Source: Clytia hemisphaerica | Taxonomy: Eukaryota | Assembly (NCBI RefSeq): GCF_902728285.1 | Contig: NW_027103286.1 | Location: 3,356,497 to 3,420,496 of the forward strand | Length of the DNA: 64,000 bases | Direction: 5' to 3' | Part shown: positions 3,560 through 57,717 of the stretch, piece after piece | Numbering within the stretch: position 1 is the first letter of the stretch | Layout: each line of letters begins with the position of its first letter | The notes under the pieces: generated by a model | The model's database searches: none | Told to the model about the DNA's origin: nothing | What the model saw: only the letters and a program-made list of their open reading frames with translations | Program-made: the position numbers and the translations under genes

Positions 3560-4560
3560 ATTTTTTTGCATATGTGTTGGAAAAAAAATTCTAGGAGAAA
3601 ACACAGGATTTCCAGTCGTAAATCAAAGGAAAACCTAAATAATGTTATATTTTCTTTAAAAACACCAAAAATCTCGTTTTTCAATGAAAACGCCAACGGA
3701 GGAGTGCAAAATAGCGTTTTGAGCCCACTTTTCTATTTTCTATACTTCATTCTTTTAAAAACATTTAGCAGGGAAATATTTTTGGACTTACTTTGACACA
3801 ATTTCAGTGGTTTATAGACTAGTTTTTGACGAATTTTAATTAAAGATACTGAATTTTGGCTTACAAAATACCGAATTTGACTTAAAACCCCAGCGACGGA
3901 GGGTCATTTTTCGGAATATTTTAGCATTTTGTGTTGGATAAAAATGATTTTAAGAGAAAGATAGGATTTCCAGTCGTAGATCAAAGGAAAAGCTACAAAT
4001 TGTTATATCATTTTCTTCAAAAACACCAAAAATCTTGTTTATCTAAAAACACCAACGGAGGAGTGCAAAATAGCGTTTTGAGCCCACTTTTCTATTTCCT
4101 ATACTTCATTCTTCGAAAAACATTTAGCAGGGAAATATTTTTGGACTTACTTTGACACAATTTCAGTGGTTTATAGACTAGTTTTTGACGAATTTTAAGT
4201 AAAGATACTGAATTTTGGCTTAAAATTACTGAATTTTGACTTAAAACCCCAGTGAAGGAGGGTCATTTTTCAGAATATTTTAGCATTTTGTGTTGGATAA
4301 AAATGATTCTAAGAGAAAGATAGAATTTCCAGTCGTAGATCAAAGGAAAAGCTAGAAAATATTATATTTTTTTCAAAAACGCCAAAAATCACGTTTTTTC
4401 ATTAAAAACACCAATGGGGGAGTGCAAAATAGCGTTTTGAGCCGATTTTTCTTTAATTTGTTATATTTTCTTATTCTTTTATAGTATTTTTAGCAGGAAA
4501 GTATTTTTGGACTTATTTTGACATAATTTCAGTGGTTTATAGACTAGTCTTTGACGAATT
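3560..4560. repeat. Tandem array of the same ~365-bp subrepeats in inverted orientation (right arm of the foldback element).
   Basis: Reverse-complement copies of the left-arm unit at ~3600-3850, 3900-4200 and 4200-4560. Confidence 0.75.
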
Positions 4561-5035
4561 TTAAGAAAAAACATCGATTTTTCGCCAAAATCCTCCGAGA
4601 TGGAGTGCAAAAAAATTTTTTTTCGAGATTTTTGAATTTCTTTCTATTACCCTATTCTATTGACAGCATTTTGCACAAAAAATGAAATTCTAAAACCCTT
4701 TACTATGCTGAGAGTAAGCATTTTTCTAAAACAGGTAAACTCGAAAAAACACCCCGACGGAGTGCAAACTCCAGCCTCGTTTGCAATTTTGTCCAGGATA
4801 GACTTTTTAAGACCCGGGTTTCCATAATCAGCATAAAATTTCCGTTCCAACGATGTATAACAACCCCATTCACCTTCTGGGTTAAGCAAAATTGCTATTT
4901 TGTGATTCTGCTCCCAGACTATAAAGTAGTACAATGTGTACTTAGCTCGAGGCTAATCAATATCAACTATTAATTACAAATCTATCTAGAAGGTTGATAC
5001 TCAAGATCAACTATTATTTACAAAGTAATTTAAAT

Positions 5036-7453
5036 TCAATCAATGAAACCAACGCCATGGATAAAAGTGCGACAGTTTCGGCAAGGACAAGTAGTGGGCC
5101 TCCATTGCTTGATTTCTTTTTTAAATTCATCTAGGTTTTTAAGTTTTTTAAAGTCATCGGGAAGGGTAGCCCAGATTTTAGGTCCCAGGAAAGCTAAAGA
5201 CGATTTTCCATTCATTTCACTTTCAACTACTCTACTACGAAAGGAATTCATTTTTCTCGTTTTGATCTTACATTGGTTTTTGAGAAATATTTTACTTTCT
5301 GATTCATTGAGTTTTGATTTAAATAGCTCTGTGGATAAGGATTGAATTGCTCGTTGATGGAAGGTGGAACTGTTGTCAAGTTTCAACAGATCATCGAATG
5401 ATGAGTTGTAGTCTGAGTAAACGATTCTCAAGCATCTTTTATGTAGATTGTTTATTTTATCCTCTAGAGCTCTGCTATGAAACATCCATATGAGAGGACA
5501 GTAATTGAAGTGGCATTTAATGAAAGCATTCATCAAGCGTTTCTTTTTTTCTAAAGTGAGATATGTGCTCATTCTGGCTAAGGCGGTTATTTTCAAACTA
5601 GCTTTCTTGCAAAGATTTTCTATATGCGATTCAAACGTCAAAAGATTATCGAAGGTTACTCCAAGAATCTTTGACGTTTTGGTATTGAAAACAGTTTCTT
5701 CTCTAATATTTAGATAGAGCGAGTCGTCAATGATGTTAACTATTAGCTGACATTTGTCAGCATTACCAACCATTTGATTAATCGAAAGCCATGTGAAGAT
5801 TTTTTCTGCTCCAGAGCTTAGTTTACCACTTACTTCAATCCAGGTAGGAGCACCAACATAGGGTGTCGTATCGTCCGCATAATTCGCAACCTTAGTATCC
5901 TCAATGATGAAAAAGAGGTCACAGATATAAATATTGAAAAACAGAGGGCCAAGGATTGATCCCTGGGGAACACCATCCTTGATCTTGATCCAGTTACTCA
6001 GTTCGTTGCCTACTTTTGTCCTTTGTTGCCTATTTTCTAGATAACTCTTGACTAACCCAGTGGAAAGGTCATCGAACCCGTATGCACTGATCTTTGCTAC
6101 AAGTAATCTGTGGCACATGCAGTCAAAGGCCTTAGAAAGGTCGATGAGCAGTGCCCCAAAAACATCTTTTTTGTCATTGGCTAGCTTCCAGAGCTCTTCC
6201 ATTGGGAGAAGAGAGGTTTGAGTGGAATATCCTTTCCTGAAACCACATTGTTGTTCATCAAAGTAGTGCTCAAAGTATTCTGATATTTGATTGTGATATA
6301 CTCTTTCGTAAATTTTGGATATTACCGGCAGTATACTTATTGGTCTATAGTTACTTTTATCGTTTTTAGAATTTTTCTTGTAGACTGGGGTGACTGTCGC
6401 GAACTTGGAAATGTTGGGAAAAAAGCCTGAGCTGAAGGAGTCATTTATGCTTATAGAGAAGCAGCTTGCAAATAAGTGAGAGTATTTTTTAATTATTTTC
6501 GCTGGTATATCATTTTCCGCTTGAGACTTATTTGTCTTAAGGTTACTAATTATCTTCTCTACTTCGTCTTCGGTGGTGTTTCTAAACTTGAAGGAGTTTT
6601 CATTGTTTGATACCTTTTCTTTTATTTTGAGTATACTAGGGTGGTTTCTAAAAAGCATTATTTCATTTTGAAGAATATTATCAGAAAGTTCATTGAGAGG
6701 CACTGGTTCTGTTGGTGGTTGATTGAGATCTAATTTTTCAGTGATATTTATGAAGAATTCATTAGACATTTTTGCAATTTCTTTATCATCTTTAATCAGT
6801 TCATCATTTTCGACTAAGGTTATTTTCTCACTTATTGGTCCTTTATTAGAGAAAAAAGGGCGCACAGTTTTCCAAAATCTTTTATTGTCAGTGATTTGCT
6901 TTTCATCCAGAGATTCATAAAATCTTCTTTTAGTGTTTCTCAGAAGATATAAGCATCGGTTTCGCTGTTGGTTGTAATTATATTTGTTGATGTTAGAGGG
7001 GTCTTTTCGTTTAATGTTATTAAGTCGAGATCGATGCATCATGGCCTTTCGTAGTGATTTTGTCATGAAAGGTTTATCATTACCTCTTAGTATTTTAGTT
7101 TTTATCGGTGCTTCAGCGTTTAGAAGATTTACTACACTTTTCATTTTATGTTCAAAGTTGCGATTCGACTCTAGTACTTGTGTTAAATGATTTTTGAAAA
7201 GATCTTCGTTAAGATTTTTGTAGCATCTATATTTAATGGCTTTAGGTGGACACTTTTCAAAAGTGGTTTTTAAGACGCTTATTGTGATGTTGTGAAAGTC
7301 CGATAGGCTATTAGATACAGAGGAAGAGCCCTGAAAAATTCTTTGGTAATTTGTTAGCATCAGATCAATGCATTTCGGATTTTCTGCGTTTTTGAAGCAC
7401 GTAGGTTCATTTATCAAGCTAGAAAGCTCCCTGCTAGCAAGAAACTCAGGCAT
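5036..7453 (-). CDS. LINE ORF2 reverse-transcriptase domain ORF (805 aa).
   Basis: ORF track plus RT motifs (FxDD/YADD box, QG box). Confidence 0.85.
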   Translation of the reverse strand: MPEFLASRELSSLINEPTCFKNAENPKCIDLMLTNYQRIFQGSSSVSNSLSDFHNITISVLKTTFEKCPPKAIKYRCYKNLNEDLFKNHLTQVLESNRNFEHKMKSVVNLLNAEAPIKTKILRGNDKPFMTKSLRKAMMHRSRLNNIKRKDPSNINKYNYNQQRNRCLYLLRNTKRRFYESLDEKQITDNKRFWKTVRPFFSNKGPISEKITLVENDELIKDDKEIAKMSNEFFINITEKLDLNQPPTEPVPLNELSDNILQNEIMLFRNHPSILKIKEKVSNNENSFKFRNTTEDEVEKIISNLKTNKSQAENDIPAKIIKKYSHLFASCFSISINDSFSSGFFPNISKFATVTPVYKKNSKNDKSNYRPISILPVISKIYERVYHNQISEYFEHYFDEQQCGFRKGYSTQTSLLPMEELWKLANDKKDVFGALLIDLSKAFDCMCHRLLVAKISAYGFDDLSTGLVKSYLENRQQRTKVGNELSNWIKIKDGVPQGSILGPLFFNIYICDLFFIIEDTKVANYADDTTPYVGAPTWIEVSGKLSSGAEKIFTWLSINQMVGNADKCQLIVNIIDDSLYLNIREETVFNTKTSKILGVTFDNLLTFESHIENLCKKASLKITALARMSTYLTLEKKKRLMNAFIKCHFNYCPLIWMFHSRALEDKINNLHKRCLRIVYSDYNSSFDDLLKLDNSSTFHQRAIQSLSTELFKSKLNESESKIFLKNQCKIKTRKMNSFRSRVVESEMNGKSSLAFLGPKIWATLPDDFKKLKNLDEFKKEIKQWRPTTCPCRNCRTFIHGVGFID

Positions 7454-18743: not shown

Positions 18744-21700
18744 GGAGAAACGAATCATCAACAAAGACAGTTTCCATGCCCATGCAAGATGACCACCCAA
18801 AACCAAAAATTTGTTCTTTCGACGAGTTCTTAAAGAACGAAGACTTTGACAAGAAACTCATGGAGGAGTTTACAAATCAACCATTTCTAAACAAGATACA
18901 AGCAATATTCGATAAAGTGTTGAAAATTTTGATGGAACAGTATCGTAGGCTCTATGATGATTATTGCAAGCTTTGCAAAAAGCAAGGCCTTAAACCTGCT
19001 ACTTTTGAAGGCGCCAAAGCTGGTTCAGCTTCTGAGAAAGAGAGTGAAATGAAATTAAGCCTTCGATTTGCTGCACAAGCTAGCAACGCTCCGGCGGATG
19101 AAATTCTGGCTTTGTATAACGATAGGATACAAAATCAGCGATTGTCTGGCTTCATGCAAATAGTGTTGGATGGGATAGACGAAGCATGGGCTGAGCAAGG
19201 TAAACTATTAGCACAATTAAAAATGCAGGCATCGGTTGTAGGGTTTTCAAGCCTCCAAATTAATAGATTGTGGCTCGGAGGAATGTAGAGCCTAGCCCGA
19301 GGAAGGTCTGAAAGGAGATTTTGGCCCATTCTTTTTCTATGTTTGGCAAAATTAAGCATTTTCATGTTGTTAAATTTCAGAGTGTACTTTCTTCTAAACT
19401 TCAAGACAATTCAATTTCAAGATCTAGTGTACCTAATAGAAAATGCCGTGTCCGCAAAAAAATTTACATTATTCAAACTGAATTACCTCGCGATCTAGAA
19501 ATCGAAACATTAAAAAAACGTCTAACCGTTTTCCGAAATCTTTTTAAGGTATTTTCTAATTTCTCTACTTTTTGTCAAAAACACAACGCTATTTTCTGAT
19601 ATTCAGGCTTCATCACAAAAATTGAGTGAGATCATTCTATATTTTCCCTTTGAGAAAAAAGGCAAATTCGTCAACGTTCCAAGTAATAACTCGTGATTCA
19701 TAAATTAACATTTTAGAAGAACATGATCAAACACGACCAACGCAATCCTCGACAACAAACGCCCAAAAACCTACCCAAACAGGCGCCCAACCACCCATGC
19801 AAAAAGCCGCCAAACAACCTGCCCAACCTGCCACCCAACAAGCTGTCAACGTCAAACAACCTACTCAATTGACCGCCCAACAAACTACTCAACCAGCCGC
19901 CCAAAAATCCATCAAACAACCTACCCAATCAACCACCCGACAACCTACTCAACCAGTTGCCAAACAATCTCTCCAACAAGCCGCCCAACAACCTACTCTA
20001 ATTGCCACCCGACAAGCCGCCAAACAACCTATTCAATCAACCAACCGACAACCTACTCAACCAGTTGTCCAACAACCTCTCCAACATGCCACCGAACAAG
20101 CCGTCAAACAACCTACTCAATCGACCACCCAACAACCTACCCAAAAAGCCACCCAACAACCTACTCAACCAGCCGACAAACAAACTTCCCAAAAAGCCAC
20201 CCAACAACCTACTCCAACAGCTACCCAACAAGCCACCAAAAAACCTACTCGATCTACTGACAAAAACATTGCGGAATCAATAGAAAGAATTGGTGCAGCT
20301 CTACGACAACGTCAACAAATAGAATCTATATCGGCGCAAAATACGACCGAGCCACCTCAAGGGTCCTCGGGGGCGACGCAAAGAATGCCTCATATACAAC
20401 CGCAACAAAGACTATCTGCGCAACCTGGATTATTTCCGCCACCGTCGGATAAATTTTCGTCACCACCAGTATTATCTTTACCATCACAAGAAGCCTCGCC
20501 ACAACAAGGGGCTACTGTTTTACCGCACGATGCAACTGATTCCCCGCAAAAAACACCTGCACCACCTACAGCAGCTCGAAACTTACCTGTGTCACAGCAT
20601 CGAAAATTCATGCCCTGGCCACAAATGACACCTGACAGACAGCCTTTTCCACAAACTTCGCCAACATCACTTCCTCAAAGTCCATCAGTCAACAGTCAGC
20701 CGGCTAAAACGCTATTGAAAAGACCACTTGTTCAAACGCAAGAAAATCCTACCGCACCACAACAAACAACAGCTGTGTCACCGCAACAAAGGGTGCAGAG
20801 AAGAACGTTACCACAAACTTTATTACCCCAAACAAATGCAGCTACCAGACAAAATGTCAAGCGGCAAAGAGACCACCCATCATTCATGTCACCGAATAGT
20901 CAAGAAAACATACCGGCACCAGCTCCAAATGAACCAACCGAGAAATCTAGAAAACCAATATCCAGTCTCACTCCGACGGAATCGAAAGCGAAAACAACAA
21001 ACAGTCAAACCAAACAGATGACAATGAATGAAAGACAAAATACAGAAAAAGTTCAAAACAAAGAGTGGGAAGAATTCAAAAATAAGATATTGCTTTCTGC
21101 GAAAGATAACGAACATGTTCTACAATCACATAAAGACAACTTGCGTGAGCAGCTTTGTGAAGAGTACGCACCACCTTCAAAAAAGCCTGTTACCCAGTCC
21201 TCGGAACTCCTGAGTAAGGATGAAAAGCCTAAGGACATCCAACCAATGTGTCTGATTGTTGGGAAAGATTTAGCCCTTCCAGTGAAAGTAGAAAAGAAGA
21301 AACCGAAAGATAAATCTCAATCAAATGAGAATGATGGTCTACAAAAGTTTCGCGAACATTTAAAAAACAACGAAGAGCATATTCAGAACCTGGAAGCAGA
21401 ACTTCAAGATTTGGATTCGATAATGGCAAACTATGAAGATGACCAAAATCAAGAAAAAGAAGTGAACATGGGGGACGACGAAGATTCGTTGTCAGCAGAC
21501 TCATCAGTGCATGAAGAACAAACACTCAGCCGGTTGGATAAAATCCTCCTGGAGAACAGAAAGGTTCGCAAGGAACAACAACACGAAACAGGTTCTGAAC
21601 AGTTGAATACTATTCGTCGAGAAATCGAACAAATGCGTTGCCAAATGAATGAATATGACAACCAGTTTCATCGACAACCTGGTAGCATTGAGAAAAATTT

Positions 21701-24700: not shown

Positions 24701-27012
24701 TAAAAGGGTTTAATCTAAGCTGTGGTGTATGAAGAACTTTGTTTTATAAAGTCAGAAATCGATTTATGTTCAAGTCACGGACACGAGTCTTCTGTAATCA
24801 GGTTATGCTGTGTTTTCTTCACTAAAATAGTAAGATTAACCCATCAGAGCCATATGGTTTACCAATAAATCTCTTTTTTTTCAAAAACAATTAATTTATT
24901 GGCTGAGTGATTTAATGTTGCCTACACCTAGCCTGTACAAAACTGTTTAGAAGGTTTGCCACACCGGTGCTCAAGATTGCCTGAATAAACAATTTTTAAA
25001 ATCTTGTATTAAAAAAAGCAAGGTAATATCTATAACATGGTAAAATTAATCTTTGTTTTGTGGAACTTCAGATCGTTTCAAGGGACAATCTTCCCCGTTG
25101 ACCTTCCACGATGAGCATCTTGCAGACTTGTTGAGGAAAGGCGTCATCAAACCTGAAGAGCAGAGTGAAGAAACTGCTTACTCAGCAACTTATAAAGGAC
25201 AGGGTGGTCGCGTTCTTGTGTTGTTGAATTATATCGAACATTATCGCATCATTGTGTCTACAAGAAAAGGCGATCTGAAGGTAAGTATTATTTATGATTG
25301 TTGTTTACATGTTTTTTGGTCAGGCTCGTGTATGCTTAAGTTCTCAAAGCATCCAGGCATAGCTTATGCTTATTATATGCTTATGAATCATGCTTATAAT
25401 TCACCCCGAGCCAAGTTTTAGCGAAATTTTAGAATTTTTTTAAAAATTTGCTCAGATTTGGGAGCAGTGGTAGCCGTGGAATGTCTTTTGTTCACTTGAC
25501 CTCTACCAAACCTTTTTAAACTGATAAAAAATGACACCTTCATATGCTTATAAGCGTTGTGCTTATAAAAAAACATGTTTTAGACAAAATATAGAGTACT
25601 AGACTCTTTACCTAGTCCAAGCAAGGGTTTGACACTATTTCCCGAGTTTGAGATTTGTTCTGTAGGCTATGTTTGCGAAAACTACCTACTCCTCTAACCA
25701 TTACAAGAAATATGAATAGTGCAAATGTAGCCAGTTATTTTCCAACGAATTCAAATATTTCTATCATTTCCAATTCTTAGCGATCATTTTCAGAAGCACA
25801 AAGCATTGTGTGTAGCATTGAGCAAGTGTTGACACCCAAGAACCTTTCATACGCTTTACACAAAAAGCTAGGCTACGTCAACCCTACGTCTATTGGACAT
25901 GCTTTCAATTGCCACGTGGAAGTCACCTTTCAGTGTCTCGAGGTAAATTAATCTCATTTGTAAGGAACGAGGTAATGGGCTTTTCATACATTCATGCATT
26001 CAGTCTTCTGGACAGATAAATAAGCTGGGAATGTTTATGTTCAAGCTCATGGTTTTCTTTGTATCATTTGAATTAAGGGAACTATTCACAGAATCCGAAA
26101 TGTTTGGCAGAAATTTGTAATTAGCAATATCCTTGATGAAGAAAAAGTTTAGTCCACCTGTTCATCAACTCAAAGGAGAGAAACTTTTACTACTTTGCAT
26201 ACATTTGGTGTTGAGCCTGATTTTTTGTTCTTCCTTCGTTATTGATTTGTTGTATTTCTTCGTTAACAGGATAAAGATGTATGCAAGTTCCTGAATGAGG
26301 AGGGGTTCGATGTCGTCCAAATAAGTAAGTATCTCAAATACAGAATATCTAGTTTAAGTTTTCTGCTCCAAGATTATGGCACAGGTATTAATTTTCTTTT
26401 TTGAAATAGAGAAAAACAGAATTTTATTGTACTATAGGGACCAACTTGACCTAAAACTTCCTTTTCTTCTTTCTTTCCTTCCTCTTCCTCTTTCATCGAA
26501 AGCCAATAACTGACTCGCACACATTCCCTTTCTTTCGTCTTTGAAAACACAGCATACAACAAACGATCGAAGAAGTACGTTTATCTCATCACAAACACCA
26601 AAGAATTCCAACAAGAGGTAAACAAAATTATTTACGTCATTTACTCGACATGGGGCAATGGGTTCGAGTGGAAGAGCACACTAAGAGCGTGGTAGTTCCG
26701 GGGAGGAGCCAGATTCTGAAATTCATCTGGAATTTCTTTCTACTTTGTTCTCTTTGGTTATGACCGTAAAACTAATCAAACCGTTTAGATATAAAGAATA
26801 TTTTCTGAGCATTGCAATTAAGGTTGAAGAAATGACAATGAGTTTGTTGTCTCTGTTTATCTGCAAAAATATTTTCTTATTTTACATTTTACCAGCTCAA
26901 GGCGATGAAGTCCATGGATTACATCATTCAGAAATTGAGAAAAATCGAGAACGAATTCGAGGAGGGATATCCTTACTACCATGAGCTGTTGGTTCCAGAG
27001 AACGATGCATAG
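18744..27012 (+). CDS. Ten-exon gene for a ~1690-aa protein. A 140-aa N-terminus is followed by a ~1166-aa low-complexity region (Q/P/T-rich repeats, then acidic) encoded by one 3.5-kb exon. The C-terminal ~380 aa form a phosphagen (arginine/creatine) kinase-like domain with a degenerate active site.
   Basis: Exons: 18744-19199 (ATG 18776), 19717-23214, 23398-23604, 24056-24236, 24538-24695, 25072-25280, 25781-25942, 26270-26324, 26553-26617, 26896-27012 (stop TAG 27010). All junctions are GT-AG and phase-consistent; CDS from ATG is 5076 nt = 1692 codons. Homology to arginine/creatine kinase: QEKHPDTIMNF ~ DKHPNKDFGDV; VQSFHITIRRCLANHNFPQLCTDAKSERV ~ [59 protein letters not shown] ~ [40 protein letters not shown] ~ HLGYVLTCPSNLGT; YLITNTKEFQQELKAMKSMDYIIQKLRKIENE ~ [33 protein letters not shown]. 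Confidence 0.75.
19800..20280 (+). repeat. Coding minisatellite: ~12 imperfect 39-bp repeats encoding (A/T)KQPTQ(S/P)T(T/A)QQP(T/A) units within the giant exon.
   Basis: Repeated caaacaacctactcaa(t/c)c(a/g)accacccaacaacctacccaa...; the same region gives spurious ORFs in other frames and on the opposite strand (20002..20283, 19713..19928, 20037..20231). Confidence 0.8.
23690..23935. repeat. Copy of the 'taagaat/aagaacat' short interspersed repeat family, inside an intron of the kinase-like gene.
   Basis: Motifs ctaagaatattcttaa and aagaatac.. similar to 31205-31450, 47520-47720, 51790-52040 and 55215-55500. Confidence 0.4.
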
Positions 27013-28002: not shown

Positions 28003-30080
28003 ATGCCTGATAACATCGATCCTCTGAATCTCTTCAGAAAATCAAGTCTTAATATAGCTCATTTAAACGTGAATGGCCTTAGGTCGAAGCTTTATTTCTT
28101 AAAACTTCTCCTTCACCAAGAAAAATTTGATATTCGATGTCTGAATGAGACTAAAATTGACTCGACAATCACTGATAGTGAAGTCTCTATACCTGGGTAT
28201 TTACCCTGTAGGCTAGACCGCGAACATTCTTTCACGATGATTGATCCCAATTTTTCAAATAGCCCTCACGCTAAAGATTGTTCAATTGCTAATATTGGAA
28301 TAAGTGACCATTCAATTGTTTTTCAAAGAAGAGAGAAACCAATATCAATAGACCAAGGACCATAACCGCCAGGTCCTTTAAAAACTTCAACCAAGAGGCT
28401 TTTCTCGAAGACCTAGGGAATCTCGACTGGTCTGACATGCTCAACTCTACTAATGTAGACGAGGTGGCTGATATCTTTAACACCAATGTGCTAGATGTAC
28501 TTGACCGTTATGCTCCTATGGTTTAGAGAAGGATAAGTCATGATAGCCCTCCATGGGTCAACGAGGTACTACTTAATGTTGAAATTCTTAGCCGATCTCA
28601 ATCAGGTTTCCGAAACAAGTATTCAACTGATACAGCAGTTATTTGTGTGTCAGACTTTATATTAGAAGAGCTTGGGAAAGGGAAGTATGTTGGGACTGTA
28701 TTAGTAGATCTCAAGAAGGTCTTTGACACAGTAGATCATAAAATTCTTTTAAAGAAATTATTCTGCTATGGATTTAGGGACTCCTCATTCTCCTGGTTTG
28801 AATCTTATCTGTCAGACCGTCTTCAATGTACACTCCTAGGAGATACTTGCTCGGACATGATGAACGAATGCGCATACGGGGTTCCACAAGGATCGGTCCT
28901 CGGACCATTGTTATTTCTCCTTTATATAAACGATATTGGTCAAAGTATTCGACCTTCTGTGTTCCACTATCTTTACGCAGACGATACCATCATTGCTGTC
29001 AGTTCTGACTGCCCCGTGAGGCTTAGAAAAGATCTATCTGGCCAACTTTCTGAAGTCGGACATTGGTTCAGCCAAAATAAACTCACGGTAAACACGGGCA
29101 AAACCGAAGTCATATATTTTGGAAGAGCAAACAAACTGAAGGAATGCAAGAGGTTGGTCCCTATCCAATTTCAAGGCGACACTCTTGAATGCAAGGAGAA
29201 AATGAAATATCTCGGTGTCATCTTTGATGAAAACCTAAAATGGGATGCCCAGGCAATAGTGCTCGCCAGAAAGCCTATCTCAAACTAAACAAAAGGCATC
29301 TCTAGCTTTCTTGAAGATCACATGAAAAAAATGCTTTTAAATGCTCTTGTTATGCCACACATTACATATTGTTCCAATTCTTGGAGCACTATGTCAAAGG
29401 CAAACCACAACAAGTTTGATTCAGTCCTGAGCAACATCTCTAAAACCATGCCCATCAATAAGACACAAGTATGCAAGGACGTGAAGGTCGAACCGACATC
29501 GACCACCTTGTCAGGGGAGACTTTTGAAACTAAAACGACCAACATCCAAGACCATGCTCGTCTCGACATTGCTGCTAGGGGATTTTGGATTCCTGGCCAG
29601 AAGGCATTCTTCGACGTAAGGGTTTCAACCCAATCGCCAAAAAGTTCAGGAATTCCACTATCTCCAAAGCATGCAATGCAAACGAAAGGGATAAAAAGAA
29701 CATTTATAATTCAAGAATCATGAAAGTTGAGCAACGTCTCTAAAACCGTGCCCATCAACAAGACATTTGATCAGATTGTCGAATACAATAAAACACTGAT
29801 GATGTTCAAAGGGATGCGCAACATTGCGCCAAAATATTTGTGTGATCGGGTAAAGCCTGCTAGCGAGCGACATGAACGCCGCACTCGCTTTGCAAGAGAG
29901 AATAAAGTCTTTGTCCCTCTTTCCAAAAACACTTTTGCTAGTCGAACGTTCATTACCTCAACCACACATCTGTGGAACAATCAACCTTTAGAAATAAAAC
30001 AATGTGAATCCCTTTTATCGTTTAACACTATTTTTATTAGGGGGGTGTTTTCCACAAGCCTAGCACTCTTTTGCTAATAA
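28003..30080 (+). mobile_element. Decayed CR1/L2-like LINE (EN fragment 28003-28365, RT fragment 28647-29288, C-terminal region 29322-30077), with internal deletions and a short internal duplication.
   Basis: EN: LNIAHLNVNGLRSKL...IRCLNETK. RT: GTVLVDLKKVFDTVDH, AYGVPQGSVLGPLLFLLYIND, YLYADDTII. C-terminus: LNALVMPHITYCSNSWS. A duplicated block LSNISKTMPINKTQ (29440) / LSNVSKTVPINKTF (29730). Confidence 0.8.
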
Positions 30081-48362: not shown

Positions 48363-49690
48363 CTAAATATAACTATCAATAACATTTTTCCATTCCACAC
48401 GATTCAAAGCTTTCCCATACCACTCACATTTCAATATACCAACTTTATTCAAACTTTTGTAAACTCCACGCCCATACGTGAATTCAGGGGCCCCGCGTGG
48501 GCGCCTTTCGCTAACCCAGCATGTCAGCATCTTACGGGGCAAACGATCAGAGGGCATTCGGGTTACGTGCCCTAACCAGCGTAGTTGGCGACGTGTAACA
48601 TATACATCAATAGAGAGCAAACCAGTGCGCTCAAGCAATTCAGCCGTCGAAATTCGGTGGGATCTCACATGATTTAAGTTAACACGGCATATGGTGCGGA
48701 CACAACGAGCATGAAAAACTCTCAACTTTCTATAAACAATTTCAGTAAGGCACCAGTGCTCAGAGCCATATAACAAAATCGCCAGAACAATGCCTTCGTA
48801 GACAGATTTTTTTGCTGCGAACGAAACATTAGTAGAACGGAATAAACAATTTCTCAAAGCTCCAAACGCACTGCTGGCTGCTTTTATTCTCGACTCGACG
48901 TCAAGGGTATCTTTACAATCACGCGATAGGATTGACCCCAGGTAACAAAAACGATCGACGATCGGCATATGGGATGCATCATCGATTTTGACATTACCAA
49001 GATTCGTATTATCGAAAGACAGGGGATCGGTATAGGTTTGGTTCGGAGCAGAAACAAACAAAATTTCAGATTTAGAGCTTTTCTCTTCGGTACCAACATG
49101 GATTTCTAGACCGAATCTTAGAAAATGCTTGACTAGTGGTGGAAGGTAGGTTTCGACAGAGCTTCTTGATGTGAATAGAACTCCGGTATCGTCAGCATAC
49201 TCAGAGTCCGGTAACGAAAACTGTTCACATTTTTTAGTTGAAGGTCGTCTACCGGTTAGGATATCGTCAAACTTGGTGTGAAAGATACAGACTTCTCGTG
49301 TGTGAGTGGTTCTCCAAGATATCATTACAGCAGCAAGGTAGAAAATGAAAAGGAGTGGACCCAGTATATCACCCTGTTTGACACCAATTATACTTTCGAT
49401 CCTTTTAGTGATGTCATTTACAACAAACTTAACTTCCACATTTGCGTGAAGTGATTTAAGCAGACGTACAAGTTTATCAGGGACACCAAAAATATATAAC
49501 ACTTCCCAGAGAAGCTCGCGCGGTACTCGATCAAAGGCTTTGACCAGGTCGAGAAATAATATCCAAGTCTCTTGGCCATGTTCCCTGCGCTTTTTCATTG
49601 CCATTTTTACTGTGAAGATCCCGTCAACACATCCACGCCCAGGACGAAAGCCGCACTGGGGTTCATGGTCAAGGATCTGCTACCACCTCA
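48363..49690 (-). mobile_element. 5'-truncated non-LTR retrotransposon fragment (RT domain, RTE/L2-like).
   Basis: 413-aa ORF 48363..49604 with FLDLVKAFDRVPRELL, GVKQGDILGPLLFIFYL, EYADDTGVLF. An upstream extension QILDHEPQCGFRPGRGCVDGIFTV (to ~49690) ends abruptly, as expected for 5' truncation. Confidence 0.85.
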
Positions 49691-50395: not shown

Positions 50396-51729
50396 TCAGG
50401 AGATACCAAGATATTCTCTGAGACATTTCGGTAGATTATCATTCAGAAAGGTGTCACTGAAACTTCTCAAGCAAGCCATTCGTGCGATATGTTTCAAGGA
50501 GATTTTCAAATGATTATATGGTGGAGTTACTTTCGCAAATTGTAGCACACTGTTTGGATTTCGGAATGCTATCTCCTGCATGTGTAAATTGAATGAAAAG
50601 TCACCAATCCATCTCTTGAAATCATGAATTATACTTTGTTCTCCCGATCCAAAATCATACAAATAAATTGACGCGAATCGTTTGTTTCCTCCTGGAGTGA
50701 CTTGAAGGCCAGTGATGAAGTACTGCCCAAAACATTCCACAACTTTGTTGAAAAAGATATGTTTTCCTTGGTAAAGCAAATTGATTATTTTCAATGGGAT
50801 AACCTCATTTTTGCTGTTGACTTGAAAGAATTTTAAGCTTTTTACCCTCGTTTTGATATCGCTCAAGTGCATAAAGAATACAGATTTTGACAAATGGTAC
50901 AACATTTGATCCTCGAAAGTCTCTTTTTCATCATCAATAGTCACTCGTTCAGCCAGAACTTGATTTCCTGAAAAATCGAAACCATATAAGAACGGACCAT
51001 ATAATCATAGTCGTGGATAAAAATTCTCTCCGAACTAATATCTATGGACAGCTGGAGATCTATGTGGGATGTGTCGAATGTACCGGGTTCGAAACTAAGC
51101 TCAGTACAATTACTCAGCACAACACGCTTGAAATGTGATAGCTTTGTCTTGTCCATTAAGACAATATCAGCCACAAAATTAAAACCACCGGTAGAAACAA
51201 GCACCATTAAGGCGTAACCATATTCTTTGGTTTTTCCCTGCCAAAAACATTGGATGCACTGCAAAGCTTTATATGGCTCCAGTTCAATGACACAATCCTC
51301 CGTTTCTTGAAAAGTGGTTGATACAATACTTCCTGGAGGAGCACCTAAAAGGTGTTTCATGCTTCCACTATGTAATATCAAAGGTTGGCTCCCATCTTCC
51401 AAAGTCGAAGGCTTCTCAAACACAAACCAACGATTAAGTGAAGCGTTATAGGGCCAATCACATTCTAAAAAATTAGAATCGTTCCACGTTGGTAATTTAA
51501 TCAAACTCATTTGTAATTTAGCTGTTTCCTCATTGAATGAATAAACAGCGATGACATGATCATCTGTGCTGTCCCATGGCCTGGTATATGAAGTATAATA
51601 TCTTCCAGAGCTGTCAAAGCCACACACAGTTCGGTATACGGGCGGGTCAAGTCCAGTCCACGTTTCTTTTGTCTCTACACATTCGGTGAGATGAGGTGGT
51701 AAGAACACTTGCCGTGGGTAAGCCAACAT
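50396..51729 (-). pseudogene. SOCS-box family copy 1, split into two overlapping ORFs by a frameshift near 50941 and ~13 bp shorter than copies 2 and 3; divergent (~60% aa identity) apart from its first ~25 codons.
   Basis: ORFs 50941..51729 (MLAYPRQVFLPPHLTECVETKE...) and 50396..50944 (...NHLKISLKHIARMACLRSFSDTFLNDNLPKCLREYLGIS) are collinear with the 448-aa copies but in different frames. Confidence 0.55.
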
Positions 51730-51789
51730 TCCTTTTTTGATATTTGAGGATTATCTTAACTCGTTTGCATTTTTATTCCTGAAAAAACA

Positions 51790-52040
51790 AAAACAGATTA
51801 TACGATGGCGAAAGTGTTAAGAACAAGTTAAGAACATTTTAAGGCTTTGGCGACTTTTAAACACCCGATTTCTTAGGAAAACGGACAAAAATACTCAGAA
51901 AATGCTGAAAATAAGAAAATAAGAACATCTTAAGAACATTTTTTGGCTTAAAATCAAAAAAGTTAAAAGCATCAGAACATCCGAAGACTTCAAAAATTTT
52001 GGATGTTCTCATAAAAAGAAGACGTGTATGGACTGGAGCA
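51790..52040. repeat. 'aagaacat' repeat copy (reverse orientation) just upstream of SOCS-box copy 1; the same repeat sits upstream of copy 2 (55215-55500).
   Basis: Reverse-complement match to the 31205-31450 family; 51730-52060 is ~95% identical to 55130-55500. Confidence 0.6.
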
Positions 52041-52079
52041 TAATAGGTCATTCTTCAGTAGCCTAGAAATCTAAGCTAG

Positions 52080-52260
52080 TTTGATTCAGTCACTTGGATA
52101 AATCTGATGGTTAAGTTGTGACTGAATAACTAGTATTCCAAGGCAAACTTAAAATCCGTAAATATAAAAAATCTTTAAAGCGCCGAAAAACGCTATATTG
52201 CCATAAGCCGTGTGTCCTAGCCTTGTGAATACGGGCTTAGTTAACTAGGCTAATTCTTCA
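52080..52260. repeat. Insertion of the 27540-27660 repeat family (inverted) in duplication unit 1; it is absent from the unit-2 paralogous position (~55500).
   Basis: See 27540-27660. The flanking sequence cattcttcagtacccttgacaataaat.atggattgattttttggcc is shared with 55501-55560. Confidence 0.55.
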
Positions 52261-53783
52261 GTACCCTTGACAATAAATAATGGATTGATTTTTTGGCCTA
52301 TTCCACAGAAAAATTAGCCTGTACCACCCCGAATGCCAACAGGCGATTTTGTCTTTTCTGCAAAGAAAAGTTTGGTACAAGTTCCAAAGAATGTATTTAG
52401 AGAATTGAGAGGGGTTACGCAAATGAAGACAGACAAACATTTTCATTGAAAGACTGACATGACAGGCAAGACTTGCAAGGTAGAAAAGTGCGTAAAATAT
52501 CGATGAATTTAAAAATTTCGTAGTCATGATTGATACCACGAGATAGAAAATGATATTAAGAGATTTACAAATTATGATAGGATATACAGTCATTGAAAGC
52601 GGAGAGTCTAACCTAAGATAGAGTGGTCTACCAGTTGTCATCAAACATCATAAAAGATGCGCCCAAGAGATGAAAATTTTCACAATGTCCAGAATTGAAA
52701 ATTAGATTTAAGTCTCAGACACAAAAAATGGCACCTGTTTGTGTAATTTACAGACCAGAATAGCAGGTTTGCAGGTTAAAGTGATTTTTTAAAAACCTTT
52801 TTAACAGTTTTTTTACTCTGCTTAAAGCTTTCAACAATACGTCAATGAATTAATTTTTGCTGGAGAATTTGATCGCTGACACTTGATTGATGTTCGAGGA
52901 ATGATTTTTTATAAATTCTTTTCCCTAACTTTCTCAGATTTTTGATGGACACTACACAATTTTCGCAGTGACTGCCGGGTGTGCCAGAAATAAATTAGCT
53001 TCTTGGATTTGATATTGTAGACAGTAGAAAAGAGATTTTTCAAAGTTTTTTTTCGGAATCAATCAGAAGAAACTTAAAATTTGGTGTATTACTTCTTAAT
53101 TTTACTGCATTAGTTTAAAAGTTATGTTCAAAAACTTAAAATGTCAATTCTAAAAAATCGATTTCATGCATCAGGAAATGTATTTCCATTATGTAAAAAG
53201 CACTTATTTACAAGGTTAGGCATCCCTGTAAATACATTCCATCATCTGTGAATCGAGATGAGCTGCAACAGTTTTGTGCAACTTTTGCAACTTCAAATTT
53301 TGTGAAAGTGAAACTCTCACCTTTCTCAACGATATGATGCACACACAGGAAAACTTTTGGAAATTCTTGGAAAGATGTTGAAAGATTTGTGGGGGTTGAA
53401 GCATTCTGCATCTTGCCCAAGGGGAAAAAACAATAGAGGTAAAGAAAGCAGAGTGTTACAAGGAGTAAGACTTTAAAATGTTTTGGCCTGCAAGTCCTTT
53501 CTCTCATAAATCGATACCCTTGTTTTTAGCCTTTTGACAATTTTTAAAAACTAACATTTTAGGTTTTTGAACATAACTTTTGAACCGATGAAGCAAAATT
53601 AAAAAGTAATACACAAAATTTTAAGTTAGGCTTTCTCTGAACGATTCCGAAACAGTCTTTGAAAAATAATGTTACTGCCTGCAATATCAAGTCAGCGAGG
53701 GTTACTTATTTCTGGCACACTCGGTATATATAAAAAAATTGTCAGAAACTTTGTTTTAAATTTACTCTAAATTTTGCGTCATT

Positions 53784-55130
53784 TCAAGCGAGTCCAAGAT
53801 ATTTACTGAGACATTTCGGTAGATTGTCCTTCAAGAATTCGTCATGAAAACTTTTCAAGCAAGCCATTCGTGCCATATGTTTCAAGGACATGTTTAAATG
53901 ATCAAAAGGAGAATTCACTTTTACGAAGCGTAGATAAGGGCTTGATAAATACATCAAACTTGCTGTTGGGTCAAAAAGCGCTATTTCCGCCATATGCCAA
54001 TTAATTGAAAAACCGTAAATTTCTCTTCTACAATCGTACCGGATCATCAGTTCTCCTGATTTGAAGTCGTACAAACAAACCGAATGAAATGGTTGGGAGC
54101 CTGCTTCTGAAGTGACTTGAAGGCCTTCGACAAAAAATTGATCAAAACATCCAACGACTTTGTGTAAAATAATATCGTTTCGTCCATGACACAAATTAAT
54201 TCTTTTCAATGGGATGACCTCATTTTTATTGTCGACTTGAAAGACCTTTATGCTTTTTGCCTTCGTGTCAACGTTCTCCAAAAAAACATAGAAGATCGAG
54301 TTTGACAAATGATATAAATCATTAAAATTCTGAACACCTTCCCTTTCGGAGATTGTGACTTCATAATCCATAAGGCGATTTCCCTCAAAATCAAAACCAT
54401 ATACCATACCATATTCATAATTATGAAGGTAAATTCTCTTAGAATTCATATCTAGCGATACACCAGAATTATGGAACGCAAACGTTCTAGGTTCGAAATC
54501 CATTTCAGTGCAACTGCTCAACACAACACGTTGGAAATGTGAAAGTCTTTTTTCGCCTATTAAAACGATGTCAGCCACAAAATTGTAACCACCAGGAGAT
54601 ACAAGCACCATCAAGACGTAACCATATTCTTTGGTTTTTTCCTGCCAAACACTATGGATGTAATGAAAAGCTTTATATGGCTCCAGTTCAATGACACAAT
54701 CCTCCGTTTCTTGAAAAGTGGTCGATACAATACTTCCTGGATAAGCATATAAAAGGTGTTTCAAGCTTCCACTGTGTAATATCAAAGGCTGGCTCCCATC
54801 TTCCAAAGTCGAAGGCTTCTCAAACACAAACCAACGATTAAACAAAGGATCATACGGAAAGTCATATTCATTATAGCGCAAGTTCCATGATGGTAATTGA
54901 ATTAAACTCACTTGTAGTTTATCTGTTTCCTCATTGAATGAATAGACGCTTATGATATTGTCACCTGCTTTATCCTCAGCTCCGCAATATACGGTGTAAT
55001 ATTTCCCAGAGCTGTCGAAGCCACTCATACTTATTTGCTGGGGGCGGTCAAGACCAGCCCACATTTCTTTTGTCTCAACACATTCGGTGAGATGAGGTGG
55101 TAAGAACGATTGACGTGGGTAAGCCAACAT
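53784..55130 (-). CDS. Intronless gene (copy 2 of a tandem triplet) for a 448-aa protein with a C-terminal SOCS-box-like motif and an uncharacterised ~400-aa N-terminal domain.
   Basis: Uninterrupted ORF with ATG at 55130. C-terminus ...SPFDHLNMSLKHMARMACLKSFHDEFLKDNLPKCLSKYLGLA resembles the SOCS-box consensus (SLqHLCR..I........LPLP..L..YL). Confidence 0.6.
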   Translation of the reverse strand: MLAYPRQSFLPPHLTECVETKEMWAGLDRPQQISMSGFDSSGKYYTVYCGAEDKAGDNIISVYSFNEETDKLQVSLIQLPSWNLRYNEYDFPYDPLFNRWFVFEKPSTLEDGSQPLILHSGSLKHLLYAYPGSIVSTTFQETEDCVIELEPYKAFHYIHSVWQEKTKEYGYVLMVLVSPGGYNFVADIVLIGEKRLSHFQRVVLSSCTEMDFEPRTFAFHNSGVSLDMNSKRIYLHNYEYGMVYGFDFEGNRLMDYEVTISEREGVQNFNDLYHLSNSIFYVFLENVDTKAKSIKVFQVDNKNEVIPLKRINLCHGRNDIILHKVVGCFDQFFVEGLQVTSEAGSQPFHSVCLYDFKSGELMIRYDCRREIYGFSINWHMAEIALFDPTASLMYLSSPYLRFVKVNSPFDHLNMSLKHMARMACLKSFHDEFLKDNLPKCLSKYLGLA

Positions 55131-55214
55131 TCCTTTTTTGATATTTGAGGATTATCTTAACTCGTTTGCATTTTTATTCCTGAAAAAACAAAAACAGATT
55201 ATACAATGTAAGGT

Positions 55215-55500
55215 GTGATCTACACGTTCTTTTCTATAAAGAACAAACTATATAAGAACATGAAGCTTCAATGGCCAAAGTGTTAAGAACAAGTTAAGAA
55301 CATTTTAAGGCTTAGGCGACTTTTAAACACCCCATTTCTTAGGAAAACGGACAAAAATACTCAGAAAATGGTGAAAATGAGAAAATAAGAACATGTTAAA
55401 AACATTTTTAGGCTTAAAATTAAAAAGGTTAAGAACATCCGAAGGCTTCAAAAATTTTGGATGTTCTCATAAAAAGAAGACGTGTATGGACTGGAGCATA
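55215..55500. repeat. 'aagaacat' repeat copy upstream of SOCS-box copy 2.
   Basis: As for 51790-52040. Confidence 0.6.
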
Positions 55501-55974
55501 ATAGGTCATTCTTCAGTACCCTTGACAATAAATTATGGATTGATTTTTTGGCCTATTCCACAGAAAAATTAGCCTGTACCACCCCGAATACCAACAGGCG
55601 ATTTTGTCTTTTCTGCAAAGAAAAGTTTGGTACAAGTTTCAAAGAATGTATTTAGAGAATTGAGAGGGGTTACGCAAATGAAGACAGACAAACATTTTCA
55701 TTGCCTAAAGACTGACATGACAGGCAAGACTTGCAAGTTAAAAAATTCGTAAAATATCGATAAATTTAAAAATTTCGTAGTCATGATTGATACCACGAGA
55801 TAGAAAATTATATTAAGAGATAAACAAATTATGATAGGATATACAGTCATTGAAAGCGGAGAGTCCTTTTTTATGAATTATAAAATTGTATAAAATGGTT
55901 ATTTTAAAAGTGTATAAATATTATGAAAATAATAAATAATTTTTTGCAAAATCCGAAATTTAAATATAAGATGG

Positions 55975-56340
55975 CATGGAATGAACCCCCCCCCCAGCCC
56001 GCAGGGGGGGGGGGCTATAACCAACATCTTCCTGAAAAGGCTGGGGGCTGGATTTTTTTTAAATTTCAGGGGGTACCTATGAACTCTGGGGGCACCTAAC
56101 TTTTATACAGTAAGGTCTGGGGGCTGGGGAACTATATTTTATATCTTGCTTTTATCTAACTATCATTATTCTTTTTAATTATAAAAATATACAATTTTTT
56201 CATTTCTTGACATATACTCAAGTCATAGAGGGTACCAATCACAGGGGGTACCTACTAACGTCTGTTGTTTGGGGGTACCTAAAATTCAGGGGGTACCTAT
56301 TTTCTTAGGAGTACCTAAACCCCTGGTCCATGCCATGGAT
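55975..56340. mobile_element. MITE with catggcatgg-type termini, C/G homopolymer runs and internal 'gggggtacct' repeats.
   Basis: gatggcatggaatgaaccccccccccagcccgcaggggggggggg ... repeated gggggtacctat/gggggtacctaa ... cccctggtccatgccatgg. Confidence 0.5.
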
Positions 56341-56871
56341 TGGGAATGATAAGATACTTTCATAATAGAATTTGATTGATTCAAATGACCACGTAAAAAA
56401 TATTCTCTCTTTGCAGTGAACTTTCTCAAATTGAATTGATCCCTTTTTATCTGGCTGGGGAGATAAGATAAGTATTAATTTTTATAATGCGTTCTATCAA
56501 ATAACTTGATAAATTCTATCAGAAGTTAAAAGGTCAAAAGCGAGCCATAAAAAATCTTCAACCTAAGATATATAACCTACCAGTTATGCTAAACATTACA
56601 GAAGTTATGCGCAAAAGATGAACATTTTCAAAGTGCTAGAATTGAAAATTAGATTTAATTAAGGACTTATTTACAAGGTTAGGCATCCCTGTAAATACAT
56701 TCCATCATCTGTGAATCGAGATGAGCTGCAACAGTTTTGTGCAACTTTTGCAACTTCAAGTTTAGTGAAAGTGCAACTTTTACCTTTCTCAACGATATGA
56801 TGCACACACCTAGGAAAACTTTCGGAAATTCTTGGAAAGATGTTGAAAGATTTGTGGGGGAGAAGTAGATT

Positions 56872-57290
56872 TATGACAGAGCTGGCACATACAGAAGGTG
56901 AGTGACACTACAGAAAGTGAGTGACACTACAGAAAGTGAGTGACACTACAGAAAGTGAGTGACACTACAGAAAGTGAGTGACACTACAGAAAGTGAGTAC
57001 ACTACAGAATGTGAATGACACCTGTGAACTTATTCTTTAGGTAGTGCTGGAGGTGTTGAATTTGACCCATGTGTTGCAATTTTAGAAACACTCATTGGTC
57101 GAATTCCGGTGTTTTTGGGTGTTTCCGATAGGGAACATGACTTTAATGCTTTTATAGATAACCAGAAAATTATTTACAACTTGAAACTTACTCTGTGATG
57201 ACACTCACTTTCTGTTAGGTGTCATTCACGTTCTGTAGTGTACTCACTTTCTGTATGTGCCAGCTCTGTCATAAATCTACTACCTGGGGG
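56872..57290. mobile_element. Complete MITE with ~30-bp TIRs (gaagtagatttatgacagagctggcacat / atgtgccagctctgtcataaatctactac) and subterminal 20-bp tandem repeats, inserted in duplication unit 3. The paralogous empty site is at ~53400.
   Basis: 56860 gatttgtggggg|a gaagtagatttatgacagagctggcacatacagaaggtgagtgacactacag(x5)... ...ttctgtatgtgccagctctgtcataaatctactac|ctgggggtagaggtattctgcatc. Unit 2 has gatttgtgggggttgaagcattctgcatc uninterrupted. Confidence 0.75.
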
Positions 57291-57717
57291 TAGAGGTATT
57301 CTGCATCTTGTTTATGCCCAAGGGAAAAACAGAAGTAAAAAAAAACAATAGAGATAAAGAAAACATAGAGTGTTACAAGGAAAAAGACTTTGTACTTTAA
57401 AATGTTTTGGCCTGCAAGTCCTTTCTCTCATAAAACGATACCCTTGTTTTTAGCCTTTTGACAATTTTTTAAAATTGACATTTTAGGTTTTTGAACATAA
57501 ATTTTGAACCAATGAAGTAAAATTAAAAAGTAATACACCAAATTTTAAGTTAGGCTTTCCTCTGAATGATTCCGAAACAATCTTTGAAAATCTTTCTGTT
57601 ACTGCCTGCAATATCTAGTCAGCGAGGGTAACTTATTTCTGGCACACTCGGTATATACAAAAAATTGTCAGAAACTATTTTATTTTAAATTTAGTCTAAA
57701 TTTTGTGTCATTTCAAC

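Follow-up and report, generated by a model that had tools for sequence, protein, structure and literature searches.

A conserved spliced gene of Clytia hemisphaerica joins a long disordered region to a degenerate, putatively non-catalytic phosphagen-kinase domain

Does the gene lying at 16327-27012 on the forward strand of a 64,000-nucleotide stretch of the Clytia hemisphaerica genome (contig NW_027103286.1, positions 3,356,497 to 3,420,496; hereafter the window, to whose first letter all coordinates refer) encode an active kinase, a former kinase that has been put to another use, or an artefact of gene prediction? A preliminary description of the window, made from its letters, had seen here a fusion between a long disordered region and a degenerate phosphagen-kinase domain, and this core reading is supported by the analysis reported below. 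Phosphagen kinases have been studied intensively and have long since entered the textbooks, and the domain found here has lost nearly all of the residues on which their chemistry depends. The explanation that we favour, to which we assign a probability of roughly three in four, is that the locus is a real, spliced and conserved gene, whose product combines a long disordered scaffold with a non-catalytic phosphagen-kinase module.

The gene consists of 11 exons and gives rise to two isoforms, X1 (1788 aa) and X2 (1636 aa). Its start had previously been placed at 18744; however, the first coding exon lies further upstream, at 16327-16585 (+), where tblastn returned 100% identity over 16327-16584, and it is common to isoforms X1 and X2 and to the transcript-derived protein P0005. 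Its product, MKQYFVYILWIYLFFLLIIFDMLQNFYDMARKRVRRKPKKSK...NEDTQ, is read from one of three in-frame candidate ATGs (16327, the annotated one, 16390 and 16411), and the exon ends in phase 1 at a gtaagt donor. The segment at 18744-19199 (+), which the preliminary description had numbered exon 1, is an in-frame cassette of 456 nt (152 codons), with acceptor and donor both readable, that is present in X1 and skipped in X2 (1788 - 1636 = 152 aa). The cassette product is non-repetitive (...MEQYRRLYDDYCKLCKKQGLKPATF...), and this region is probably helical. The exons downstream of it keep their earlier numbers here. Exon 2 (19717-23214, +) is indeed the single low-complexity exon of 3498 nt that had been described; delimited by its open frame and splice sites, it encodes 1166 aa and sits within an uninterrupted open frame of 1172 codons, for which our own estimate of the chance probability is ~1e-33 (with ~6% stops per random codon).

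Exon 3 (23398-23604, +) encodes a Lys-rich linker (KTNKPDKEEKKKKNKKQKKKEKE...) that is not kinase-like, is identical in the RefSeq model of isoform X2, and looks like a nuclear localisation signal. The phosphagen-kinase-like region begins with exon 4 (24056-24236, +) and continues through exon 5 (24538-24695, +), which carries SFHITIRRC in place of STRVRCGRS, and exon 6 (25072-25280, +), which has NYIEHYR at the position of NEEDHLR and forms the best-conserved block of the family. Exon 7 (25781-25942, +) is the counterpart of GFLTFCPTNLGTTVRASVH and is devoid of the reactive Cys, exon 8 (26270-26324, +; DKDVCKFLNEEGFDVVQI) supplies the helix and strand that precede the former catalytic loop, and in exon 9 (26553-26617, +) the flexible RGxxGEH loop is replaced by TYNKRSKKYVYLITNTKEFQQE. 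Exon 10 (26896-27012, +) encodes the C-terminal helix and tail, with the stop codon TAG at 27010-27012. The kinase-like part, previously given as about 380 aa, is thus reduced to about 315 aa (exons 4-10), as exon 3 belongs to the linker. When rebuilt from the sequence, the ten-exon splice starting at 18776 reproduced exactly the ten phase-consistent exons claimed before: 5076 nt or 1692 codons (1691 aa), with a sole, terminal stop. All of its introns are GT-AG, and six of the nine donors read gtaag.

The translation of exons 2-10 agrees with XP_066920193.1 (P0001, "titin homolog isoform X2", 1636 aa, with a precomputed PF00217 assignment) in 1549/1549 residues, from EHDQTRP on. Isoform X1 is XP_066920187.1 (P0003, "enolase-phosphatase E1-like", 1788 aa), which corresponds to UniProt A0A7M5UJ48, already labelled automatically as a "Phosphagen kinase C-terminal domain-containing protein". 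Both RefSeq names are low-complexity matches and do not reflect biology, an annotation lesson in how such matches produce misleading names. In addition, P0005 (TCONS_00072421), a partial transcript-derived protein of 1099 aa, runs from the 5' exon through the cassette into the giant exon, and represents independent sequence data because amino-acid differences from the window are scattered along it. The possibility of a minus-strand gene under the locus was rejected, as all open reading frames (ORFs) there have at most 113 aa and lie in low-complexity antisense sequence. Scans of the window for Rfam families and tRNAs found none.

Descent of the C-terminal domain was established from several directions. 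A Pfam search with the last 315 aa matched PF00217 with E=2.1e-11 and 44.1 bits (gathering cutoff 22.4), the match extending over positions 7-202 of the 203-position profile; on the full-length protein the score was 39.9 bits, and PF00217 was the sole domain above threshold in a Pfam scan of the whole protein. Single exons gave weak, collinear phosphagen-kinase matches. PF02807, the N-terminal domain of these enzymes, gave no match at E<=1 with the C-terminal 315 aa or at E<=0.1 with the whole protein, in agreement with the earlier statement that most of the N-terminal helical domain is missing. What is left of it is YNEHANEVAAIYQEKHPD in exon 4, which corresponds in the alignment to the KHP linker and to the final helix of the N-domain. 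Moreover, a homologue introduced below (P0006) has a sub-threshold PF02807 remnant (21.1 bits vs a cutoff of 25.7), and the ancestor therefore had an N-domain.

A single-sequence search of the Protein Data Bank (PDB) placed arginine kinases at the top, with E of about 3e-3. Using a family profile (A1) built from family members only, with true kinases excluded, matches were obtained to the Anthopleura two-domain arginine kinase (E=8e-27), to other arginine, creatine, lombricine and glycocyamine kinases (1e-13 to 1e-20), and to PDB chains of the bacterial protein McsB (E=2e-10 and 7e-5). Structure prediction with AlphaFold2 (AF2) gave a mean predicted local distance difference test (pLDDT) of 37 without an alignment, and a pLDDT of 83 with a predicted template-modelling score (pTM) of 0.84 when a 20-row alignment that included true kinases was supplied. 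All top Foldseek matches of the resulting model were phosphagen kinases, led by lombricine kinase 3JPZ (E=5e-15, template-modelling score 0.73) and followed by creatine, glycocyamine and arginine kinases. Altogether, the C-terminal domain descends from an animal phosphagen kinase of the arginine/creatine type. By descent it belongs to the superfamily, as the PF00217 match shows, yet it has no N-domain, no Cys signature and neither the full set of Arg nor the Glu pair.

We then turned to the residues themselves, using what we take to be the numbering of Limulus arginine kinase on a motif alignment computed here. Two features that the preliminary description had counted as retained did not hold. 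The Arg pair of TIRRC is out of register: in three of three independent alignments the RR of SFHITIRRC stands opposite the G-R of RxRxGR, with the phosphate-binding Arg124 and Arg126 of STRVRCGRS replaced by His and Thr, respectively, and only the third Arg kept. Likewise, the Glu of NYIEH, previously equated with that of NEEDH, aligns with Asp226, and the position of Glu225 is taken by Ile; His227 and Arg229 of NEEDHLR are kept in NYIEHYR. The remaining lesions were confirmed by the alignments. The canonical CPTNLGTTVRASVH is represented in Clytia by a segment with NPTSIGH instead of CPxNLGT, so that the reactive Cys271 is absent, and the following Arg280 has become Asn. The RGxxGEH loop (RGTRGEH in the earlier wording) is replaced by VQITYNK, about 2 residues shorter, with loss of Arg309 (replaced by Val or Gln) and Glu314. 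Furthermore, a stretch of about 10 residues is deleted in the Clytia counterpart of the loop RFLxAAGxxRxWPxGRG. Among the five arginines that hold the nucleotide phosphates (124, 126, 229, 280 and 309), four are lost and the Arg229 equivalent alone is kept, and both guanidino-binding glutamates (the Glu225 and Glu314 equivalents) are replaced. By its residues, the domain appears more thoroughly dead than had been held. Phosphate transfer between ATP and a guanidino substrate would be impossible with such a site, and the domain is best regarded as a putative pseudoenzyme.

Is such a domain a decaying remnant, or is it maintained? An exhaustive phmmer search with the 315-aa domain against 1.84 billion representative proteins returned 17 matches at E<1e-3. 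Besides a Clytia paralogue (P0002), the named ones were true kinases (Lineus, Intoshia) or bacterial McsB, and the named, annotated proteins of the searched library appear to include no orthologue. Homologues were found among environmental sequences. An ORF of 1575 aa, P0006, takes up a 5041-nt contig from run ERR1719450, presumably a Tara Oceans metatranscriptome; it encodes about 1,290 low-complexity residues followed by a kinase-like domain with 31% identity to that of Clytia and the same lesions. Short ORFs with 41-81% identity are single exons on metagenome contigs, among them P0014, an 81%-identical fragment that matches exon 10 and comes from another organism. On L002, a genomic scaffold of 6 kb, a giant ORF of 1196 aa is followed by exon-sized kinase-like ORFs. 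In addition, a pattern scan with exon-6 peptides recovered three contigs of about 5.3 kb, including L011, which is a single ORF of 1683 aa. L011 and L002 share 92% nucleotide identity, and L011 is the spliced form, in which giant and kinase-like exons are contiguous and the L002 introns at 3626-3866, 4090-4792 and 4948-5090 have been removed. The exon 5/6 and 6/7 boundaries coincide with those of Clytia, and the exon 6 boundary is kept in L002, L003 and L006.

The relationship between Clytia and the L011 protein (L011p) extends along the molecule. Identity is 40% over the 354 C-terminal residues (E=6e-75), and within the scaffold a handful of short motifs is conserved: an N-terminal helix, which the cassette exon shares with L011p residues 143-222 (29% identity, E=4e-5), a coiled-coil-like island IRREI(E/D)(Q/E)M...F.R.P.S (collinear, E=1e-4), a second collinear island LDPxxWPxL (E=7e-3), and a VLYLTT block preceding the basic linker, read from the translations. 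The ratio of nonsynonymous to synonymous substitution rates (dN/dS, Nei-Gojobori), calculated between L011 and L002, was 0.38 over the 1116 codons of the giant exon and 0.06 over the 195 codons of the kinase-like exons. Because of this difference, the dead domain stands out as the most constrained part of the protein, under strong purifying selection in this one closely related pair. Overall, layout and lesions recur in at least two other marine eukaryotes, and the genes probably form a small family restricted to hydrozoans.

These data bear directly on the suspicion that annotation has created a chimera, or that the locus is a relic in decay, with exons of an arginine-kinase pseudogene chained to an unrelated long ORF. 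Wholesale loss of the catalytic machinery is what such a relic would display, the model of the 93%-identical paralogue P0002 ends after its exon-4 equivalent without a kinase core, and for Clytia the joining of the exons was followed in gene models. Nevertheless, RefSeq and EukProt models agree on the link between giant exon and kinase-like exons, and L011 and L002 document the same splicing in a sister species. Neither of the outcomes that the preliminary description had named as fatal to its reading, the lack of a significant PF00217 match and kinase-like exons left unspliced to the long exon, was encountered. Strong splice sites flank seven short exons that remain in frame, the entire architecture recurs in two other organisms as one ORF on mRNA-like contigs, intron positions are shared, the kinase-like exons evolve at a dN/dS of 0.06, and the UniProt fragment A0A7M5URA8 (P0004) runs across the exon 5/6 junction. 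We therefore consider a chimera or relic extremely unlikely and reject it on the mRNA-like contigs, the shared introns and dN/dS, in line with the preliminary argument against a pseudogene. The paralogue itself (XP_066920003.1, "nucleolar and coiled-body phosphoprotein 1-like") is a 787-aa protein encoded on another Clytia scaffold. It maps to 20148-24237 of the window with about 88-93% identity and internal deletions, its model ends where read-through of the exon-4 donor meets a TGA (...IHQSVK*), and it may have arisen by a recent duplication and since been truncated or begun to decay.

If the domain is maintained, it could in principle be maintained for an altered chemistry, as a sensor of nucleotide, phosphoarginine or guanidino compounds or as a protein-arginine kinase similar to McsB that relies on non-canonical residues. 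In favour of this, the xEHxR core is invariant: wherever the motif is covered, in seven family sequences, an acidic residue at 226, His227 and Arg229 are present without exception. There is also an additional Arg before the retained third one (IRRC), and purifying selection is very strong (dN/dS 0.06). Moreover, the N-domain and the reactive Cys are missing as in McsB, which the family profile detects (E=2e-10). On the other hand, four of the five phosphate arginines, both glutamates and the entire RGxxGEH loop are replaced, and what replaces them is not the same from one member to the next: the substituted positions read H/A/T, T/D/E, I/Q/E/H and N/C/I across the family, the residues at the arginine positions differ also in P0006, P0020 and L011, and the CPxNLGT position is occupied by NPEHLGM, TPTEIGN or SSTNMGN in other members, Cys being found in none. 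As the substitutes differ while the xEHxR core is invariant, the pattern suggests a conserved fold without a conserved alternative active site. McsB, for its part, retains RxRxxR and the Glu/Asp of NxEDH, and similarity to animal kinases is far stronger than similarity to McsB. An altered chemistry is thus judged unlikely. A more specific proposal, by which the dead domain would bind ATP/ADP, phosphoarginine or arginine through the Arg229/His227/acidic cluster and thereby switch the interactions or condensation of the scaffold, has in our opinion a slim chance of being correct; if true, it would mean an energy-state sensor derived from a former energy-buffering enzyme. Horizontal acquisition from a bacterial McsB was rejected as well, given the closer relationship to animal kinases, the N-domain remnant with its KHP linker, and the introns.

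The portion of the protein that precedes the domain amounts to about 1,470 mostly low-complexity, highly charged residues, against about 315 in the folded C-terminal domain. Within the giant exon, Q/T/P/A repeats are followed by a P/S/Q-rich zone, a charged zone with coiled-coil-like character, an acidic zone and the start of a Lys/Pro-rich basic zone, which extends into exons 3-4. Composition was calculated in the numbering of isoform X1. The repeat zone (239-420) has 26% Q, 19% T, 13% P and 13% A with a net charge of +13, and the P/Q/S-rich zone (421-660) has a net charge of +10. The mixed charged zone with its coiled-coil-like stretches (661-1090) carries -27, the acidic zone (1091-1250, 160 aa; 21% E and 10% D) carries -40, and the basic zone (1251-1473; 18% K and 12% P) carries +20. 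Degenerate tandem repeats of KQPTQxxxQ-type units occupy 19763-20250 (+) according to Tandem Repeats Finder (TRF). The 39-bp QPT minisatellites mentioned in the preliminary description could not be reproduced: TRF periods range over 24-108 bp (24, 36, 48, 60, 84 and 108 bp), all multiples of 12 and none of them 39, and the best array lies at 19876-20248 (period 108 bp, 3.5 copies, score 427). The acidic repeats described alongside them were recovered as a 36-bp (12-aa) unit, ENIEQSR(T/S)DIPG, present in 2.4 copies at 22311-22396 (+). In addition, two Lys/Arg-rich clusters, ARKRVRRKPKKSK and KKKKNKKQKKKEKE, suggest by their composition a nuclear or nucleolar location.

A different cellular setting would apply if the protein were a secreted or membrane-anchored mucin-like molecule, with a signal peptide or anchor at its hydrophobic N-terminus and an extracellular, O-glycosylated Q/P/T region; the term mucin-like had indeed been used for it. 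The Clytia N-terminus MKQYFVYILWIYLFFLLIIFD is strongly hydrophobic, a weak match to the transmembrane-domain model PF22251 was recorded (19 bits, under the cutoff of 32.3), and the repeat zone is rich in Thr (19%) and Pro (13%). However, the hydrophobic stretch, YFVYILWIYLFFLLIIF (17 residues, within 16327-16416), is missing from both full-length homologues, of which L011p begins MLNNIYQVVKNKF and P0006 begins MFIYKSIKNKLRG. It is directly followed by RKRVRRKPKKSK, which by the positive-inside rule would leave the bulk of the protein in the cytosol, and the downstream in-frame ATGs at 16390 and 16411 are possible true starts. Moreover, the repeats are predominantly Gln-rich (Q 26%), no extracellular Pfam domain such as VWD, SEA or Cys-knot scored above threshold, and elsewhere the sequence is rich in Lys and Glu, has clusters that look like nuclear localisation signals, and terminates in a domain of cytosolic ancestry. 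We regard a mucin-like protein as highly unlikely, and a secreted mucin is rejected on the unconserved hydrophobic N-terminus and the basic cluster next to it. The stretch may be a Clytia-specific membrane anchor or a translated 5' leader.

Taken together, a genuine gene in which a disordered scaffold is followed by a non-catalytic phosphagen-kinase module accounts best for the results. The dead domain would have been retained for a non-catalytic role, and in our view the most likely one is that of a folded protein-binding or self-association module, which could anchor or regulate the long multivalent disordered scaffold. Four observations weigh against this reading. The invariant Arg229, His227 and acidic 226 may still allow some binding of a ligand or phosphate; the 17-residue hydrophobic stretch at the Clytia N-terminus, as a possible membrane anchor, would alter the cell-biological picture; dN/dS was derived from a sister-species pair rather than from Clytia, with the kinase-like figure based on 195 codons; and the presence of true kinases in the AF2 alignment biases the fold, making the structural model corroborating and not independent.

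We know of no described pseudoenzyme derived from the phosphagen-kinase family, and neither this protein nor catalytically dead phosphagen kinases turned up as the subject of a paper in our literature searches. The preliminary remark that the family is undescribed therefore stands for the literature searched; it does not stand for the databases, where UniProt and RefSeq carry labels, all of them automatic, that already point to the domain. This family offers a clear case of a catalytically dead phosphagen kinase kept by selection, with lesions common to lineages that are 31-40% identical, in an unusual architecture in which a giant disordered protein carries a single dead domain. As CRISPR, transgenesis and cell atlases are available for Clytia hemisphaerica, a cnidarian model, the function is accessible to experiment. 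As the taxonomic range looks narrow and there is no tie yet to a major open question, we consider the significance moderate.

Other features of the window were noted in passing. Upstream of the gene, two small ORFs at 12127-12747 (+) and 14754-15218 (-), of 206 and 154 aa, have signal-peptide-like hydrophobic N-termini and no Pfam match, and may encode lineage-specific secreted proteins. Reverse-transcriptase ORFs of the non-LTR type (PF00078) are located at 5036-7453 (-), 28003-29723 (+) and 48363-49604 (-), with E=1e-29, 2e-26 and 5e-15, respectively; the one just downstream of the gene (28003-29723) is broken up into several ORFs. Intronless paralogues, all beginning MLAYPRQ(S/V)FLPPHLT(E/D)CVETKE, form a tandem array over 50396-59064 (-), which comprises two intact 448-aa copies (53784-55130 and 57718-59064, -) and a third that is split into overlapping ORFs at 50396-50944 and 50941-51729, which suggests a frameshift. 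One intact copy was searched against Pfam and gave no match, and the array looks like a lineage-specific family. Finally, two exons of the housekeeping neighbour THOC1 (THO complex subunit 1; PF11957, E=6e-40 and 1e-50) are found at 60246-62297 (-).

Comparison with known systems helps to define what has changed. Animal phosphagen kinases (arginine, creatine, lombricine, glycocyamine and taurocyamine kinases, PF02807 plus PF00217; e.g., the arginine kinases 4RF6 of Anthopleura japonicus, with two domains, and 1M15 of Limulus) have the alpha/beta catalytic-domain fold and successive blocks of homologous sequence in common with the Clytia domain, which keeps their KHP linker, xEHxR core, GDL(K/G) turn and C-terminal helix. 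The Clytia protein differs from them in the absence of the N-terminal specificity domain, in its replaced catalytic residues and in the shortening of a loop by about 10 residues. Moreover, those enzymes are free-standing proteins of about 40 kDa, whereas the Clytia domain terminates about 1,470 disordered residues.

McsB (PDB 6FH1 and 8GQD) resembles the Clytia protein in that both lack the reactive Cys as well as the small N-terminal domain, in having the loop ahead of the NxxxH strand shortened in the same way when aligned, and, as far as our proposal for Clytia goes, in acting on or with proteins rather than on small guanidines. In McsB, by contrast, the arginines of RxRxxR are retained, NxEDH still contains an acidic residue, and the Arg280 position is occupied by Lys or Arg. 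McsB also has its own C-terminal dimerisation and phosphoarginine-binding domain. The Clytia protein ends about 15 residues past the kinase-like domain, leaving no extra C-terminal domain. In addition, McsB is bacterial and more weakly related (E=2e-10 and 7e-5 vs 1e-13 to 1e-27 for animal kinases; the McsB-type protein P0019 reached E=1e-4 in phmmer with the 315-aa domain), and the Clytia gene, unlike McsB, has spliceosomal introns and a KHP linker of the animal-kinase type. By sequence, residues and architecture, the Clytia protein is not McsB.

Two- and three-domain phosphagen kinases likewise embed the kinase module in a much larger polypeptide. They keep complete N- and C-domains, with NEEDH, CPTNLGT and RGxxGEH intact in P0010 and P0021, and are active or presumed active; none of them shows a lone dead domain attached to a long disordered region. 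Another protein of this kind is P0015, from metagenome contigs of about 10 kb in the European Nucleotide Archive, whose 1687 aa comprise a PH domain and four complete phosphagen-kinase repeats (PF02807 and PF00217, four times each, with strong scores), an unusual architecture unrelated to the Clytia family.

Other Cys-less phosphagen-kinase homologues are represented by P0016 and P0030 (EukProt Seg1585.5, "Creatine kinase M-type", about 414-483 aa), which have NRDDHIR and NWNTNLVGS and possess neither the Cys nor RGxxGEH. These proteins differ from the Clytia one in having kept the N-domain (PF02807, 39 bits), in their ordinary size and in the absence of any giant disordered stretch, and with 28% identity (E=5e-6) they show no specific relationship to its family. 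They appear to be an independent case of catalytic loss and, because they too are degenerate, catalysis would have been lost more than once in the superfamily.

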